Origin: Candidatus Heimdallarchaeota archaeon
GTDB taxonomy: Archaea; Asgardarchaeota; Heimdallarchaeia; Hodarchaeales; Hodarchaeaceae
Assembly (NCBI GenBank): GCA_020353515.1
Contig: CP070695.1
Location: 235,644 to 246,357 of the forward strand
Direction of reading: 5' to 3'
Length of the DNA stretch: 10,714 nucleotides
Both the position numbers and the translations under genes were made by a program. Below, in pieces: positions 2,281-10,388 of the stretch. Below the pieces are notes generated by a model, which ran no database searches, had not been told where the DNA came from, and saw only the letters and a program-made list of their open reading frames with translations. Position 1 is the stretch's first letter. Each line of letters begins with the position of its first letter.

Positions 2281-2412
2281 GAGGAGTAAAAATGGTTTGA
2301 GCTATTGGTTTCATTACCAGCTCAATCAATATTAGGACATTAGCATTTTTTCGGGTTCTTAAATGATATTTCCTAATCCATTGGTGAGAAGACATTCTAG
2401 TTTGGACTCCTC
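2281..2412 (+). ncRNA. Candidate structured RNA (5' leader of nrdJ or stand-alone ncRNA); strand uncertain
   Basis: Nested Watson-Crick helices found by eye: GAGGAGT 2281-2287/ACTCCTC 2406-2412; AATGG 2291-2295/CCATT 2378-2382; TTGAGCT 2297-2303/AGCTCAA 2319-2325; ATTAGGA 2331-2337/TCCTAAT 2371-2377; CATTT 2344-2348/AAATG 2361-2365; AGAA 2387-2390/TTCT 2395-2398. Confidence 0.5.
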
Positions 2413-2470: not shown

Positions 2471-5400
2471 GTGGATAAAGGGATCCATACCATGACTCTC
2501 ATCTCGGAAAAACCAGAGAAGTCTATGAGAACAAAGCTGCCACATCTTACGCCCAACGCAAAAATTGTACTTGAAAAACGATATTTAAGGCAAAATGAAC
2601 GCGGAGAGGTTATTGAAACTCCTGATCAGCTATTTAAGCGAGTAGCTAAGGCTATTGCTGCAAACGAAGCGCGGTATGGGGGAGATCCAATTCTCTTTGA
2701 AGAAAAATTCCATGATATAATGGTCAATCTTGAATTTCTTCCAAATTCGCCCTGTTTAATGAATGCGGGGACGGAACTCAACCAACTTTCGGCCTGTTTT
2801 GTCTTACCAGTCCATGATGATATGAACTCTATTTTCCTGGCTATTAAAAATGCAGCAATAATACATAAATCAGGTGGAGGCACTGGTTTTACATTTTCAC
2901 ATCTTCGACCTACTAATGATAAAGTTCAAACTACTGGTGGTGTAGCCAGTGGTCCAATTAGTTTCATGACTGTCTTTAACTCCGCTACAGAGATCATTAA
3001 ACAAGGTGGACGTCGTCGAGGAGCGAATATGGGGATATTGAGAGTTGATCATCCTGATATTATGGATTTCATTCATTGTAAAGAAGAATTAAGCACTTTA
3101 AACAATTTTAACATCTCCGTGGGACTCACTGAGACATTTATGGAAGCAGTAATTCATGATAACGAGTTTCCTCTCATTAATCCCCGTAATTCTCAAGTGG
3201 TAACTAGACTTAAGGCCCGCTTGGTTTTTGATGAAATTGTCAAACAAGCTCATTCCAACGGAGAACCAGGTATAATTTTCTTGGATAGAATTAATGCTTC
3301 TAATCCGACCCCTATAGTGGGTGAAATAGAAGCAACAAACCCTTGTGGAGAACAACCACTGCTAGCGTACGAATCGTGTAATTTAGGGTCTATAAATCTA
3401 AGTAAGATGGTAAAAAGCGACTCTTTTAATCCTTTGAAATTTCATGTTGATTATAATCGTCTTGAACGGGTTGTTACCCTTGCTGTTCGTTTTTTGGACA
3501 ATGTGATCGATGTTTCCACTTTTCCTCTACCTGAAATCGAGCGTATGACAAAAGCTAACCGAAAAATTGGATTAGGAGTCATGGGATTTGCAGATTTACT
3601 TATTAAATTAGGTATTCCTTATAATTCTGAGAAAGGGATTGAGCTCGCACAACGAATCATGAATTATATTCATACAATTGCTATTCGTGAGTCTCAAAAA
3701 CTAGCTCAAGAGCGGGGATCCTTTCCGAATTTCAAAGATAGCATTCATGCAGAAAAGTTTTCTATGATGCGAAATGCGACATTGACAACGCTTGCGCCAA
3801 CAGGTTCAATTTCAATTATTGCAAGTTGTTCTAGCGGTATTGAACCTCTATTTATGTTGACTTATGAACGACGAGTCTTGGATGATGATATTCTAGTAGA
3901 GGGATATCCATTTTTTGTGGAGACTGCAAAAAGTAAAGGAATTTATTCAGCTGAGCTAATGGAAAAAATCGCAACAACTGGTTCAATTGCAGACATGACC
4001 GAAATACCTGAAGAGATACGCCAAATATTTGTTACTGCACACGATATCTCTCCAGAGTGGCATGTTCGAATGCAAGCTGCGTTTCAGACATCAGGGGTAG
4101 ATAATGCGGTAAGTAAATGCATAGCTGGGGATACTCTATTACCAACTAATAAAGGTTTAGTTCCAGTAGCAGAATGCGGGTTTGCTAATGGTGTGGATGA
4201 ATTTGATTCTCCATTACCTGATTTAAAAGTTATTGATGGCAAAGAAGGCCAATTTAAAAAGATTATTTCTCATTATAGTGCGGGAAAACATCCTTCTGTT
4301 GAAATAACACTTAGAAATGGATCTAAAATTATTGGTGCAAAAGCTACTCATAACATTATGACTTCTAGTGGGTGGAAAACACTTTCAAAGTTAGAAAAGG
4401 GGGATCTAGTTGTTGTCAAACACAAATTTTCCCCTATTCACACCAAAGGTGGAAAAAAGATTGAATTTGATAGCGAATTTAGAACTAGTTCTAATATAAT
4501 CCAATTACCAAAGAAAATGGATGTACATTTAGCACATTGGTTAGGAATGCTAGCTGCAGACGGATCTATAGTAGAAAGAACTGGAGCAGTAGCTCTTGTT
4601 GAAAACAACAAGAAAGTGGGGGATCTTTTTGATGACCTTTCACTAGAGATTTTTAGAGAACATCCCCGACACATAAAAGATAAACGAAATAATGTGATAT
4701 CTCACGTTATTACATCAAGAACCTTAATCCGATTTGTCAAAAGTTTAATTGGAGACAAAGCACGAAATAAACGTGTTCCCAAGCAAATACTCGAAGGTAG
4801 TGCTAAAGAAAAGAAAGCATTCTTAGAAGGGGTTTCATTAGATGGTTATCTTAAAGAAAATAGAGGATTAGTTGTATATGGAGGGATGTCTAGACAATTA
4901 GCTTATCAGGTTTCAGAATTACTTAGAAGTTTTGGTCTCCCATATATATACCAAGGTCAGAGAAACCTTAGAGGACATGGTATTTATTATTTTGTCGAAA
5001 TTAGTAATGAATTGCAAGGCATAATAAGACCAATTGAAGAACACAAGAGGTCAATACCCCATTACAAGAAATATTTCGTTTTGGTTGATCCCGATGAAGT
5101 CCAAAAGAAGACCCTTCCAACTACGAACGAGTATTATAGCAATTTAAGATGGTTAAAACAATCAAAACGGGAGTATTGTTGGAATACTGTAGCGAAGTCT
5201 CTAAATCTTAGAACTATTGCTGCTGTTGAGAAAGTAACTTCCATTAAAGATATTGGAGATATTCCATTATTTGACGTTGAGGTTAATAGTTCTCATACAT
5301 ACCTTGTAAACGGTATTGTGTCCCATAATACCATTAATTTTCCTAAAGAAGCAACAGAAGCTGATATCAATGATGCATACATGTTAGCTTACAAATTAGG

Positions 5401-6037
5401 TTGTAAAGGGTTAACAGTTTACCGATCTGGCTCTCGTACTTACGATGTTTTATCAAAAAAAGGCACTAATGAAGTGAAACAAGTAGATGAGGTTCTCCCA
5501 TCGAAAAAACCTAGATATCGGCCTGATATTACTCATGGAGTAACTGAACGGATTCGGGTGGGTTGTGGAACCAATCTATTTATTACAATTAATGAAGATG
5601 AAGAGGGATTAGCTGAGTTATTTTTATCACTGGGAAAGTCTGGTGGTTGTGTCGCTTCACATATCGAATCGATGGGACGATTAATTTCACTAACACTTCG
5701 GAGTAGAATTGAACCTGATGAAATAATACTTCAGCTGAAATCCATACGATGCCCTTCTCCTACATTTGGTTCAGAAGGTCCGATTCTGTCTTGTGCTGAT
5801 GCAGTTGCTAAATCAGTAGAGCGTTTCATAAATCGATATAGTATTAATAATCATAAAAATGATGTTAGCTCTGTTAAAAAAACAGAGGAAAGCATATCTA
5901 GTTTAGACAATAATTCCATTTATCTTTCTCATACTACTTCAGGATTACGTCCAGAATGTCCTGAATGTGGAAATCTTGTAGAGCATAGTGAGGGATGCAT
6001 TCTCTGTCGAGTCTGTGGTTACTCTAAATGTGGATAA
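2471..6037 (+). CDS. nrdJ: Class II adenosylcobalamin-dependent ribonucleotide reductase, intein-containing (about 784 aa after splicing)
   Basis: FLPNSPCLMNAG, QLSACFVL, SGGGTGF, QGGRRRGANM, catalytic ATNPCGEQPL..ESCNLGSINL, RKIGLGVMG, LAPTGSISIIA, SK|TIN, KGLTVYR. C-terminal TSCPD-like domain (SCADA) and Cys-rich tail CPECG..EGCILCRVCGYSKCG. No N-terminal ATP-cone. The true start may be ATG 2492 rather than GTG 2471. Confidence 0.97.
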   Translation: MDKGIHTMTLISEKPEKSMRTKLPHLTPNAKIVLEKRYLRQNERGEVIETPDQLFKRVAKAIAANEARYGGDPILFEEKFHDIMVNLEFLPNSPCLMNAGTELNQLSACFVLPVHDDMNSIFLAIKNAAIIHKSGGGTGFTFSHLRPTNDKVQTTGGVASGPISFMTVFNSATEIIKQGGRRRGANMGILRVDHPDIMDFIHCKEELSTLNNFNISVGLTETFMEAVIHDNEFPLINPRNSQVVTRLKARLVFDEIVKQAHSNGEPGIIFLDRINASNPTPIVGEIEATNPCGEQPLLAYESCNLGSINLSKMVKSDSFNPLKFHVDYNRLERVVTLAVRFLDNVIDVSTFPLPEIERMTKANRKIGLGVMGFADLLIKLGIPYNSEKGIELAQRIMNYIHTIAIRESQKLAQERGSFPNFKDSIHAEKFSMMRNATLTTLAPTGSISIIASCSSGIEPLFMLTYERRVLDDDILVEGYPFFVETAKSKGIYSAELMEKIATTGSIADMTEIPEEIRQIFVTAHDISPEWHVRMQAAFQTSGVDNAVSKCIAGDTLLPTNKGLVPVAECGFANGVDEFDSPLPDLKVIDGKEGQFKKIISHYSAGKHPSVEITLRNGSKIIGAKATHNIMTSSGWKTLSKLEKGDLVVVKHKFSPIHTKGGKKIEFDSEFRTSSNIIQLPKKMDVHLAHWLGMLAADGSIVERTGAVALVENNKKVGDLFDDLSLEIFREHPRHIKDKRNNVISHVITSRTLIRFVKSLIGDKARNKRVPKQILEGSAKEKKAFLEGVSLDGYLKENRGLVVYGGMSRQLAYQVSELLRSFGLPYIYQGQRNLRGHGIYYFVEISNELQGIIRPIEEHKRSIPHYKKYFVLVDPDEVQKKTLPTTNEYYSNLRWLKQSKREYCWNTVAKSLNLRTIAAVEKVTSIKDIGDIPLFDVEVNSSHTYLVNGIVSHNTINFPKEATEADINDAYMLAYKLGCKGLTVYRSGSRTYDVLSKKGTNEVKQVDEVLPSKKPRYRPDITHGVTERIRVGCGTNLFITINEDEEGLAELFLSLGKSGGCVASHIESMGRLISLTLRSRIEPDEIILQLKSIRCPSPTFGSEGPILSCADAVAKSVERFINRYSINNHKNDVSSVKKTEESISSLDNNSIYLSHTTSGLRPECPECGNLVEHSEGCILCRVCGYSKCG
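4118..5329 (+). mobile_element. Intein with LAGLIDADG (DOD) homing endonuclease, 404 aa, within NrdJ
   Basis: Starts CIAGDTLL (block A), has THNIMT (block B), WLGMLAADG and FLEGVSLDG (LAGLIDADG blocks), and ends LFDVEVNSSHTYLVNGIVSHN followed by Thr. Removing it restores the conserved DNAVSK-TINFP motif. Confidence 0.96.
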
Positions 6038-6437: not shown

Positions 6438-7337
6438 TTGAAATGGAATGATGAAGAGGCCCCAAAGACAGCGATGGCTATTTTGAATCTCGTTTCAGGT
6501 GTTACCCTCTGGGAGGAAATGATTCGAGATCGGAGGGAATTTTGTCTCCATAAGTGCCAAAATAATAAAGTTGTTAATATGTTGCGTCCTAAGTGCACTG
6601 ATCGTCGCTATTTAGATGTCCTTCTATTGAAACGCGAGTCTAAAAAGAATATGCCAATGTTTTGTTATTCTCAACGAATAAAAGGGCTCATAAGATCATT
6701 CCAAGAAGGTGAAATGCTGCTTCCTGACGTTTATGTCTATACTGATGATTATTGGAAGATTATCCATGAAAAACAATCGTCTACTCGTCGTTCAGCTTCA
6801 GATATTCTCAAACGAACAATTATAAAGGGAAAAGAGGTTCTTCCTATGGGGAGTATGGATCAAGTCCTTGAAACTCATTTATTACGTGATCAGCTTTTTC
6901 TCCTTTGGCCAAAGTTAGATTTATGTTTGATAAACGCCCAAGAAACTAGTATTCACAGTATAAGTATGTTTCGTTCAATCGTTGAGACCCTAGCGGAGTA
7001 TCATGGTCTTGAAGTCGATCTGGATGTTGAGGGTAATTTCATTAGTATAATATTCAAGAATCTTAACTTAAAAGATTCAGTTACGGTAGAAGAGGAGCTT
7101 CAAAAGTCTTCCGCCTTTACAGGCTTTTCTGGAACAGAGATTTGGACGGAAGTTTCATTACCATCAGGGTTAGAGGAAGAGGAATTCGAATTCAAAGTAA
7201 AAGATCTCCATTTCATTTTTAAAACAGTGTCCGGTGTGATAGAGATCATGGAAAGGGATGAAAACGATAATAGGCTTGCTGACTCGATAACAGAACTTTC
7301 TCAGGCCATTGCGGAAAAAGATCAGGATTCTAAATAA
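6438..7337 (+). CDS. Hypothetical protein, 299 aa, with N-terminal Cys cluster and acidic C-terminal half
   Basis: Long ORF, TTG start with AAGGAG upstream. Contains CLHKC...C...C spacing; no family recognised. Confidence 0.8.
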   Translation: MKWNDEEAPKTAMAILNLVSGVTLWEEMIRDRREFCLHKCQNNKVVNMLRPKCTDRRYLDVLLLKRESKKNMPMFCYSQRIKGLIRSFQEGEMLLPDVYVYTDDYWKIIHEKQSSTRRSASDILKRTIIKGKEVLPMGSMDQVLETHLLRDQLFLLWPKLDLCLINAQETSIHSISMFRSIVETLAEYHGLEVDLDVEGNFISIIFKNLNLKDSVTVEEELQKSSAFTGFSGTEIWTEVSLPSGLEEEEFEFKVKDLHFIFKTVSGVIEIMERDENDNRLADSITELSQAIAEKDQDSK

Positions 7338-9461: not shown

Positions 9462-10388
9462 TTGCCACGGAAACGATCTCGAAAAACATTATTGGAAATT
9501 TCTAGCCAACCAGAACTTTGGATATTTAGTAATCTCCTAATTGAAGATTGGGTAACAAAGGACGATCTCAAAAATCCTGTATTCAAAAAAAAAGTAAGCA
9601 TTCCTATTTCTCTTCCTAGTGGTACTGCAATCTTAAAAATCGAATCAGATGGTCCGAAGGGTCAAGTTATCTCAGTAGCGATTGTTCATAGCTCAGATAT
9701 CCAATTATTCCAATTGATGGAACCATTAGGATTTCCTAAATTTCAAACAAGAGTCTTAGATTACATAAAAGAGATTTATCCACATAATTTTGATTTTTAC
9801 AGCTATCTAAGACCTTTCTATTCCGCTAAAATGAGAGAGTTCGGAATTACTGATATTCTTGGTTTGGACACTGATGTTAAAGATTTGGCAGAATATGGTG
9901 TGAAATCTCGGATATTACAACGGTTTTCTGATCCAATACAAGGATATGAGGTTCCTCAGTATTGGCGTGTTAACAAAAAACTAGTTGTTTTTAAACCTGA
10001 CAAAATTACAGAGAGAGATCTGATAATCACACTCCGTAAAACGATCTGTGATAGATTAGCAAAACATGCTGTTATAGAGGGACTACGCTGTGCTATTATT
10101 GCTCTAAAACATTATGCCTCATTACTTGACAAACTCACTTCGGAAACACGAATCAATCCACCAGAAGAGCACAGAACTTTAGCTGATGGGCTTTATGAAT
10201 TAGGGGAATTCCAGAATTCCGCAATATTTTACTCTAAATGCTTATCTCAATCCACTTTTGCTGATGAAAATGAGAGAGACCAAATATTAACAGCTTTAAA
10301 AGACTCTATTGAACGACTGGAACCTCAAGATTTTTTAGAATACGCTTTGTTTGCAGCTAAAGTGGCACGAGAACATGGTGACGAATAA
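9462..10388 (+). CDS. Hypothetical protein; possible degenerate YprB/MrfB-like RNase H-fold domain plus C-terminal TPR-like helices
   Basis: AILKIESDG..QVISVAIV, DPIQGYEVPQYW and LAKHAVIE align by eye with the YprB motifs FxDIETTG, DIPGxxIPxxY and HNxxD. LADGLYELGEFQNSAIFYSKCL is TPR-like. Confidence 0.6.
   Translation: MPRKRSRKTLLEISSQPELWIFSNLLIEDWVTKDDLKNPVFKKKVSIPISLPSGTAILKIESDGPKGQVISVAIVHSSDIQLFQLMEPLGFPKFQTRVLDYIKEIYPHNFDFYSYLRPFYSAKMREFGITDILGLDTDVKDLAEYGVKSRILQRFSDPIQGYEVPQYWRVNKKLVVFKPDKITERDLIITLRKTICDRLAKHAVIEGLRCAIIALKHYASLLDKLTSETRINPPEEHRTLADGLYELGEFQNSAIFYSKCLSQSTFADENERDQILTALKDSIERLEPQDFLEYALFAAKVAREHGDE

Follow-up and report, generated by a model that had tools for sequence, protein, structure and literature searches.

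The nrdJ control region of a Heimdallarchaeota genome: a probable core promoter and a candidate upstream reading frame

The window described here is a stretch of 10,714 nucleotides from the genome of a Candidatus Heimdallarchaeota archaeon (GCA_020353515.1, contig CP070695.1, positions 235,644 to 246,357 of the forward strand), and all coordinates below refer to it. Our subject is the 132 bases at 2281-2412, which lie upstream of nrdJ, the gene for a class II ribonucleotide reductase (RNR), and which a first-pass annotation had read as one multi-branched RNA of six helices and two junctions. The explanation we prefer, and in which our confidence is about even, is that these bases are the middle of a genus-specific nrdJ control region and not one folded RNA. 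The control region itself is genuine and genus-restricted; best supported within it are a promoter-like element with rigid spacing, a single hairpin, and an upstream frame confined to one clade. In the explanation we prefer, 2348-2364 would be the nrdJ core promoter, a G-rich element and the TATA box TCTTAAAT, followed by an AT-rich stretch (2374-2377) and, at 2384-2386, the initiator (A/G)TG. Transcription from about 2384 would yield a poorly structured leader of about 106 nt, which in the nine closest species would carry a short frame running from or just past the start site to the nrdJ ribosome-binding site. The left half (2281-2345) would be upstream regulatory sequence of six species, either a short upstream transcript or transcription-factor sites, and a divergently encoded ribbon-helix-helix (RHH) protein resembling CdrS and aCcr1 would be the candidate regulator. 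Conservation, spacing, pairing figures, and the open frame are what the sequences show directly; from them we infer where transcription starts, that the promoter is used, that the frame is translated, and which protein regulates. The features at the center of this proposal are as follows.

2348-2365, + strand: central motif TTTTCGGGTTCTTAAATG, the probable nrdJ core promoter, with a G-rich element and the TATA box TCTTAAAT
2374-2377, + strand: TAAT, an AT-rich element about 10 nt ahead of the putative start, its YAAT position fixed in 20 orthologs
2384-2386, + strand: GTG (ATG in most relatives), putative initiator and start site and possible leaderless start codon
2363-2458, + strand: candidate upstream reading frame, 31 codons from ATG 2363 and 24 from GTG 2384, in a shared frame
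2477-2494, + strand: nrdJ ribosome-binding site AAAGGGA and start codon ATG 2492
2492-6037, + strand: nrdJ (class II RNR) with an intein; Pfam Ribonuc_red_lgC (2.4e-128), Ribonuc_red_lgN, and TSCPD

The intergenic region between the RHH gene and nrdJ was aligned across the window and five genomes of the same genus (L003-L007, identical with L219, L218, L220, L225, and L221, respectively), which together form the set of six close orthologs. Mean identity to the window is 0.35 over 2175-2199, 0.64-0.85 over 2200-2424, 0.50-0.54 over 2425-2474, and 0.63-0.83 at the start of nrdJ, a profile indicating that 2200-2424 is under constraint. To this extent the first-pass annotation was right to see a conserved cis-regulatory region linked to nrdJ. 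Blocks that are invariant in all six are TTTGAGGAG, the AAAA run ahead of ATG 2292, TTTTNGGGTTNTTAAATGA, and TTTG(G/A)A.

The element that carries our explanation is the one that persists beyond these six species. A protein search found nrdJ in 18 of the genus's 21 other genomes and not in either of 2 sister-family genomes, and a metagenome scan added five further genus-level nrdJ loci. When the sequence upstream of nrdJ was searched with a 17-nt core, TTTYGGGTTCTTAAATG, allowing up to 4 mismatches, the central motif was recovered in 17 of the 19 genus orthologs whose upstream sequence was long enough, plus 3 metagenome relatives (20 in total). These 20 align over 49 nt without a single indel and share the pattern TTTTYRKGTTYTTAAAT, 8-9 variable bases, YAAT, 5-6 bases, and T(A/T)(G/A)TG, the last of which falls 19 nt past TTAAAT in most of them. 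Genus members that lack the left half keep a central element of the form TTTTYRGGTTYTTAAAT, N8-9, YAAT, T(A/T)(G/A)TG. The distance from the motif to the nrdJ ATG ranges from 83 to 133 nt, is mostly 129 nt, and is exactly 129 nt in seven orthologs. Both the motif and a hidden Markov model built from it are unique in the genome, and a scan of genome contigs with a degenerate 18-mer as an exact pattern returned almost only chance matches in unrelated bacteria.

How the motif varies bears on what it is. Its final base is G, T, C, or A among orthologs, TTAAAT is TTATAT in one of them, and the ATG at its end (2363) is ATT, ATC, or ATA in eight orthologs of other clades. A TATA box tolerates changes of both kinds and a start codon does not, so the central motif is better understood as TATA-like than as a site of translation initiation. 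The arrangement found, a TATA-like octamer at rigid spacing to an initiator and upstream of a gene, is the one by which an archaeal core promoter is recognized. A hairpin enclosing the motif (of the ATCATTT/AAATGAT type) was considered and rejected: a flanking stem is not kept across the 20 orthologs in any register, and the motif is thus not the loop of a conserved hairpin.

Only the signal recognition particle (SRP) RNA gene and, with less clarity, that for RNase P RNA supply a usable promoter ruler in this genome, tRNA upstream regions being too variable. With the first position of the SRP RNA model taken as the 5′ end of the RNA, the TATA box of that gene, TTTATAAA, ends 20 nt before it, and a G-rich stretch lies immediately upstream of the box. 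Applied to TCTTAAAT, which ends at 2364, the same spacing puts the nrdJ start at 2384-2385, which is the conserved (A/G)TG. From this conservation and spacing we infer that 2348-2386 is probably the nrdJ core promoter, with TATA box, proximal AT-rich element, and initiator. If this is right, then most of the fold proposed by the first-pass annotation would lie upstream of the transcription start. The SRP RNA of this genome scores 74 bits, compared with an Rfam gathering cut-off of 96.5.

Downstream of the putative start, 2384-2500 folds no better than its shuffles (z +1.23), and no consensus structure was found for the leader in six orthologs. Small hairpins do recur right after the putative start: L218 has GGAAU-GGC-AUUCC, L138 has one of 8 bp, and the L226 clade has a long one. 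In that clade (L226, L228, L229, L234, and L236) RNAalifold gives a stem-loop of about 40 nt beginning at the putative start and lying roughly 105 to 60 nt ahead of the nrdJ ATG. Some of its pairs look compensatory by eye, for example GGGGGUGAAAU/AUUCACCCCC versus GUGAUGAAAU/AUUUACAC, and it has no sequence similarity to the leader in the window.

The upstream frame is open for 21-38 codons in all nine of the species whose nrdJ is closest to that of the window. Across these nine there are no stops in its first 21 codons, compared with about 3 and about 2 in the other two frames, and it closes beside the ribosome-binding site, 13-33 nt short of the nrdJ ATG. L224 has a leader 46 nt shorter and a frame shortened to match, which still ends there. 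Taken singly, the sequences give dinucleotide-shuffle P values of 0.05-0.17 for the open frame; the joint probability, a post hoc estimate over 4-5 lineages too diverged to align here, is small. Indels inside the frame are all multiples of three in 5 of the 6 close orthologs. The peptide is not conserved and third positions show no bias (by eye, changes are spread over all three codon positions), and a role for the frame, if it has one, would lie in its being translated and not in the peptide made. Since the frame stops beside the ribosome-binding site, translation of nrdJ is probably coupled to it. Its codon 8 is the (A/G)TG of the putative start (ATG in six species, GTG in two, and ATA in one), and the frame could be translated leaderless from the proposed promoter or from ATG 2363 on a longer transcript. 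TATA-like words are weakly enriched in this genome 24-36 nt before start codons that lack a Shine-Dalgarno (SD) sequence. Outside the nine-species clade the ATG is ATT, ATC, or ATA or the frame is mostly 1-24 codons long, with one non-ATG frame of 34. The frame is in frame with nrdJ (129 nt being 43 codons); in the window and four close relatives, just one stop codon stands between it and the nrdJ ATG. In 11 of 17 orthologs the distance from motif to ATG is divisible by three.

Several observations weigh against our explanation. The start site is calibrated on one gene, that for SRP RNA, and a promoter consensus for the genome was not derivable from 8-mer counts or by expectation maximization, which drifted to a low-information pyrimidine/purine pattern. 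Two orthologs, L230 and L232, fail the motif search; alignment shows a degenerate TTATTGGGTYTTGAAGT at the corresponding place, where TCTTGAAGT makes a poor TATA box. Directly upstream of the nrdJ TATA box there is no A-rich or purine B recognition element (BRE), the sequence being TTTTYRGG(T), although the G-rich stretch upstream of the SRP RNA TATA box suggests that the local BRE consensus may differ. Initiation in this genome is mostly SD-led and not leaderless, and ATG 2363 is kept in all nine open-frame species, which would fit a transcript that starts farther upstream. Finally, 2270-2345 is as conserved as coding sequence in the six species, and this conservation, an SD with its ATG, and a hairpin with G-U pairs argue for an active upstream promoter and an RNA made from the left half. 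The features concerned are these.

2243-2250, + strand: TATA-like box 1, TTTTTAAT, possible upstream promoter P1, kept in the six close orthologs
2281-2300, + strand: GAGGAG (SD-like), 5 nt, and the two-codon mini-frame ATG GTT TGA
2291-2330, + strand: 12-bp hairpin AAUGG + UUGAGCU / AGCUCAA + UCAUU, from RNAalifold and covariation
2346-2351, + strand: T6 run (T7 in close relatives, T4-5 in others) at the upstream edge of the central motif

The alternative that survives best, possible though on the unlikely side, is a long structured leader. The box at 2243-2250 would then be the nrdJ promoter, transcription would start near 2274, and a leader of about 215 nt would hold the mini-frame, the hairpin, the T-run at 2346-2351 as an attenuator, and the nrdJ-coupled frame from ATG 2363, with the central motif acting in RNA as a termination or pause site and as the initiation region of that frame. 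Much in the left half favors it. TATA-like box 1, already picked out by the first-pass annotation, is indeed conserved in all six close orthologs and is followed 20-25 nt downstream by a conserved TCTGC and then by the invariant TTTGAGGAG and its ATG. SD-like pentamers in this genome peak at -14 to -10 before start codons, so the spacing from GAGGAG to ATG 2292 is the normal SD geometry, and the ATG-NNN-TGA is kept in 4 of the 6 species (TGA is TGG in L007, giving 16 codons, and L006 lacks the ATG). The stop of the mini-frame sits in the 5′ arm of the hairpin. Of the pairing statistics, those for the TTGAGCT hairpin are the clearest: 90% of cells are paired, there is one G-C to A-U compensation, and three cells are G-U, which would be A-C on the - strand. 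Folded alone (2288-2332), the hairpin has z -3.57, with 1 of 200 shuffles as good. A hairpin of some kind precedes the T-run in most orthologs, with 7 bp in L227, 8 bp in L230, and 4-5 bp in most others; in the close relatives the T6-7 run begins 20 nt past the hairpin end. The stop-start overlap ATGA that joins the 2292 frame to the 2363 frame and the ATG and open frame kept in all nine close species fit this alternative as well.

A long leader has more difficulty with the rest of the genus. ATG 2363 is replaced by ATT, ATC, or ATA in other clades even though the motif and its spacing are kept, and 2281-2345, with GAGGAG, mini-frame, and hairpin, is absent outside the six-species group, including from L008-L010. 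The upstream TATA-like box also stands about 55-65 nt from the central motif outside this group versus 110 nt within it, and TATA-like boxes in the other orthologs lie 55-115 nt upstream of the motif. In the window, the putative 2274-2351 RNA (78 nt) folds no better than shuffles (z -0.39), a scan of 1800-2600 for intrinsic terminators of the bacterial type found no terminator-like sites, and ATG 2363 has no good SD before it.

The left half looks, from these sequence comparisons, like a second transcription unit or leader, that is, a short RNA, a read-through leader, or an interference device, and as to which TATA-like box drives nrdJ, the upstream box may be the source of a second transcript. 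The T-run could be an archaeal oligo-T termination signal for a transcript from P1. Alternatively, the repeats of the left half may be protein-binding dyads in DNA. It is conceivable, if doubtful, that RNR is under two-tier control here, in which the upstream promoter would make a short RNA with a ribosome-loading mini-frame (SD-AUG-NNN-UGA) and a hairpin, and in which this RNA would end at the T-run over the core promoter or read through into a leader whose frame gates nrdJ translation. Past its early TGA the 2292 frame stays open to the TGA that overlaps ATG 2363 in five close species; it is frame-shifted in L007, read-through was judged to be chance, and the frame could be a remnant of a longer leader peptide. 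Two other frames were rejected, one on the + strand over 2201-2335 (a different frame in L003, and without an ATG) and a conserved - strand frame with HLRTQKN (broken in L005, L006, and L007).

A stand-alone small RNA, which in part overlaps with the explanation we prefer, is improbable. Here the product of P1 would be a transcript of some 75 nt (about 2274-2351) that stops at the T-run; its 5′ GAGGAGU would pair in trans with ACUCCUC in the leader, or its transcription would interfere with the downstream promoter. The order of TATA-like box 1, hairpin, and T6-7 run suits such a unit, and the 7-nt complementarity is exact in four species. Only 7 bp pair, however, and when the 3′ arm changes no compensation follows, the element is found in six species only, and the 78-nt RNA folds as poorly as noted above.

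The reading of 2281-2412 as a single multi-branched RNA that senses a ligand or a protein and so controls nrdJ, in the manner of a riboswitch, is in our view very improbable. It was built on the following pairings.

2281-2287 / 2406-2412, + strand: outer stem GAGGAGT / ACTCCTC
2291-2295 / 2378-2382, + strand: AATGG / CCATT
2297-2303 / 2319-2325, + strand: TTGAGCT / AGCTCAA
2331-2337 / 2371-2377, + strand: ATTAGGA / TCCTAAT
2387-2390 / 2395-2398, + strand: AGAA / TTCT, a small hairpin with loop gaca just 3′ of the putative start site

All of these helices, like the TATA-like sequence at 2243-2250 and a pyrimidine run from 2408, are in the sequence where the first-pass annotation placed them. 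The minimum-energy fold of the + strand (-33.7 kcal/mol) shows each of the listed helices except AATGG/CCATT, which gives way to a different pairing. Fold energy is better than that of shuffled sequence by a modest margin: z is -2.23 on the + strand, with 8 of 200 shuffles equally good, and -2.76 on the - strand, with 2 of 200. Three perfect 7-bp repeats in 132 bases are unusual but not extreme, the chance expectation estimated from base composition being about 1 perfect 7-bp inverted repeat per 132 AT-rich bases. The fold thus beats chance marginally, a result that is suggestive and not strong.

Covariation across the six orthologs is likewise marginal. The seven helices of the first-pass reading have 83% of their cells paired and 7 pairs that change on both sides, and the observed covariation measures are reached by 11-31 of 500 column shuffles, with the caveat that related sequences can reach such pairing values without any structure. 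A control with slid partners gave 32-48% of cells paired, but it carries a bias, one of the compared sequences having supplied the structure in the first place. The closing stem shows no both-side changes at all: its 5′ arm differs in only one of the six (GAGGAGC in L003), and its 3′ arm is ACATCTC in L006 and ATCCCTT in L007, the two most distant members of the set, where GAGGAGT is unchanged and the stem is broken without compensation. The AATGG/CCATT, ATTAGGA/TCCTAAT, and AGAA/TTCT helices have only 65-78% of cells paired, AGAA/TTCT with two pairs that change on both sides and yet 65% paired. The RNAalifold consensus (covariation term 0.23) consists of the outer stem and the TTGAGCT hairpin extended by AAUGG/UCAUU and omits the ATTAGGA, AATGG/CCATT, and AGAA helices. 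Its pairing and its z of -3.57 make the hairpin at 2297-2325 convincing, behaving as it does like an RNA helix of the + strand; they do not extend to the multi-junction architecture, whose other helices are marginal, uncompensated, or dropped.

A riboswitch-like RNA could still point to the conserved "loop" as a ligand pocket, but that loop is promoter-like with rigid spacing, no stem flanking it is kept across the genus, and half of the fold is missing in congeners that retain the motif. A cmscan search of 1800-2900 on both strands against Rfam 15 (E<=10) found nothing in 2281-2412, the cobalamin families included, and two chance matches elsewhere; the first-pass annotation had likewise seen no cobalamin-riboswitch consensus. 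The 132 bases occur as a single copy in the 4.94 Mb genome, which excludes a miniature inverted-repeat transposable element or other dispersed repeat. That the - strand instead carries the fold, as an RHH leader, is hardly credible despite the somewhat better z score of that strand, as the RHH gene has a conserved TATA-like box of its own at 2123-2130, about 50 nt from its ATG at 2071, as well as an SD, 2150-2200 is not conserved, and the hairpin G-U pairs would become A-C.

The RHH gene and the boxes between it and nrdJ bear on possible regulation.

1895-2071, - strand: 58-aa RHH gene (CdrS/aCcr1-like), divergent from nrdJ; Pfam RHH_1, E 6.8e-8
2207-2229, + strand: conserved upstream box CCGACATTTTTGCGTACTACTAC, a candidate transcription-factor site, unique in the genome

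The best NCBIfam matches of the RHH protein are CdrS (E 9.4e-14; 51 bits, with a cut-off of 100) and the aCcr1 family (E 1.4e-4). Its head-to-head pairing with nrdJ recurs in the five genus-level metagenome loci, with RHH protein identity of 89-98%, and none of 75 more distant nrdJ loci (about 50-59% nrdJ identity) has an RHH neighbor. In published work the aCcr1-box reads A(T/G)G(A)TA(G)A(T/G)TAC (PMC9976878). Similar sites in the RHH-nrdJ intergenic region are GCATATTAC at 2145 and 2166 (21 nt apart), CATAATAC at 2135, and GTAGTAGTAC, the - strand of 2220-2229, which fits the published pattern. The RHH protein may be regarded as a candidate regulator of its own gene or of nrdJ. The CCGACATTTTTGCGTACTACTAC box is near-invariant in 5 of the 6 closest orthologs and diverged in the sixth, and its GTACTACT core is also found in L222 and L223. 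Part of it, TGTCGGAT/ATCCGACA (2207-2214 in the window), recurs upstream of nrdJ in either orientation in L224, L227, L230, L232, L223, and L137, forming the near-palindromes ATTGTCGGTATCGACAAT in L224 and AATGTCGGTATGGACATT in L137; by our own estimate its copy number in the genome is about that expected by chance. As a genome-wide regulon motif, TTGTCGGAT was rejected, its 31 copies being about the chance number estimated from base composition.

The source genome, of an Asgard archaeon of Hodarchaeales type, is a single contig of 4.94 Mb with a G+C content of 36%, and its sequence includes runs of N. Orthologs of nrdJ have AAAG(G/T)GA 8-10 nt ahead of a kept ATG, with a protein that begins MTL(I/V)S, and we accordingly place the nrdJ start at ATG 2492 and not at GTG 2471 as in the open reading frame list. 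Inside nrdJ, Pfam matches to Intein_splicing and LAGLIDADG_3 mark an intein with a LAGLIDADG domain at about residues 597-953. Open-frame lengths of about 725 to 2581 aa at the orthologous genes L217-L236 suggest that intein content varies among them. Farther along the window is a gene for an archaeosine tRNA-guanine transglycosylase. Four frames of 91-308 aa have no Pfam match (1504-1779 and 6438-7337 and 9462-10388 on the + strand, 334-729 on the - strand), and for 1504-1779 and 334-729 an NCBIfam search also gave no match. A tRNA search of the window found none; in the whole genome, ARAGORN with introns allowed reported only 37 tRNAs, some of them doubtful, and 5S rRNA (RF00001) had no match.

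This locus is not evidence for an archaeal riboswitch. What it offers is a sharply conserved, gene-specific, promoter-like element with fixed geometry, together with a candidate upstream frame that ends at the nrdJ ribosome-binding site. [quoted passage not shown] A pairing of nrdJ with an RHH protein of the CdrS/aCcr1 type would tie the supply of deoxynucleoside triphosphates to the cell cycle. The two-tier switch, if true, would be a case of archaeal attenuation or interference, possibly set by this cell-cycle-type neighbor, and we know of no described counterpart.

Among known systems, bacterial RNR genes resemble this one in having a dedicated cis-element before the gene, whether NrdR boxes or cobalamin riboswitches. 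The NrdR operator consists of two 16-bp boxes with 15-16 bp spacing (PMC13584703), and 16-bp boxes at that spacing do not occur here. NrdR itself (TIGR00244) was not found in the genome in a search that gave matches in control genomes, and cobalamin riboswitches differ in having no match in this region.

The aCcr1/CdrS cell-cycle repressors (PMC9976878) resemble this locus in the RHH protein, here one of 58 aa, and in box-like ...TAC motifs, which here lie in the shared intergenic region. In contrast, the scores of our protein are under the family cut-offs, its neighbor is nrdJ and not cdvA or ftsZ, the boxes are sequence resemblances, and in the window no such box is found in the stretch from the central TATA box to the nrdJ ATG.

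Like known upstream frames and leader peptides, the nrdJ frame is short, lacks a conserved peptide, and ends beside the ribosome-binding site of the main gene. It differs in being present in nine species only, in its ambiguous start (ATG 2363 or the (A/G)TG at 2384), and in having neither regulatory codons nor alternative terminator/antiterminator pairings.

Archaeal core promoters have in common with the nrdJ element an octamer resembling a TATA box, an AT-rich stretch some 10 nt ahead of the start, a pyrimidine-purine initiator, and rigid spacing between them. The distance from the end of the TATA box to the putative nrdJ start is also that of the SRP RNA gene in the same genome. The element upstream of the nrdJ TATA box is T-rich with GG, whereas the BRE of model archaea is A-rich, and the conservation of 17 nt at nrdJ is unusually tight for a core promoter and specific to this one gene.

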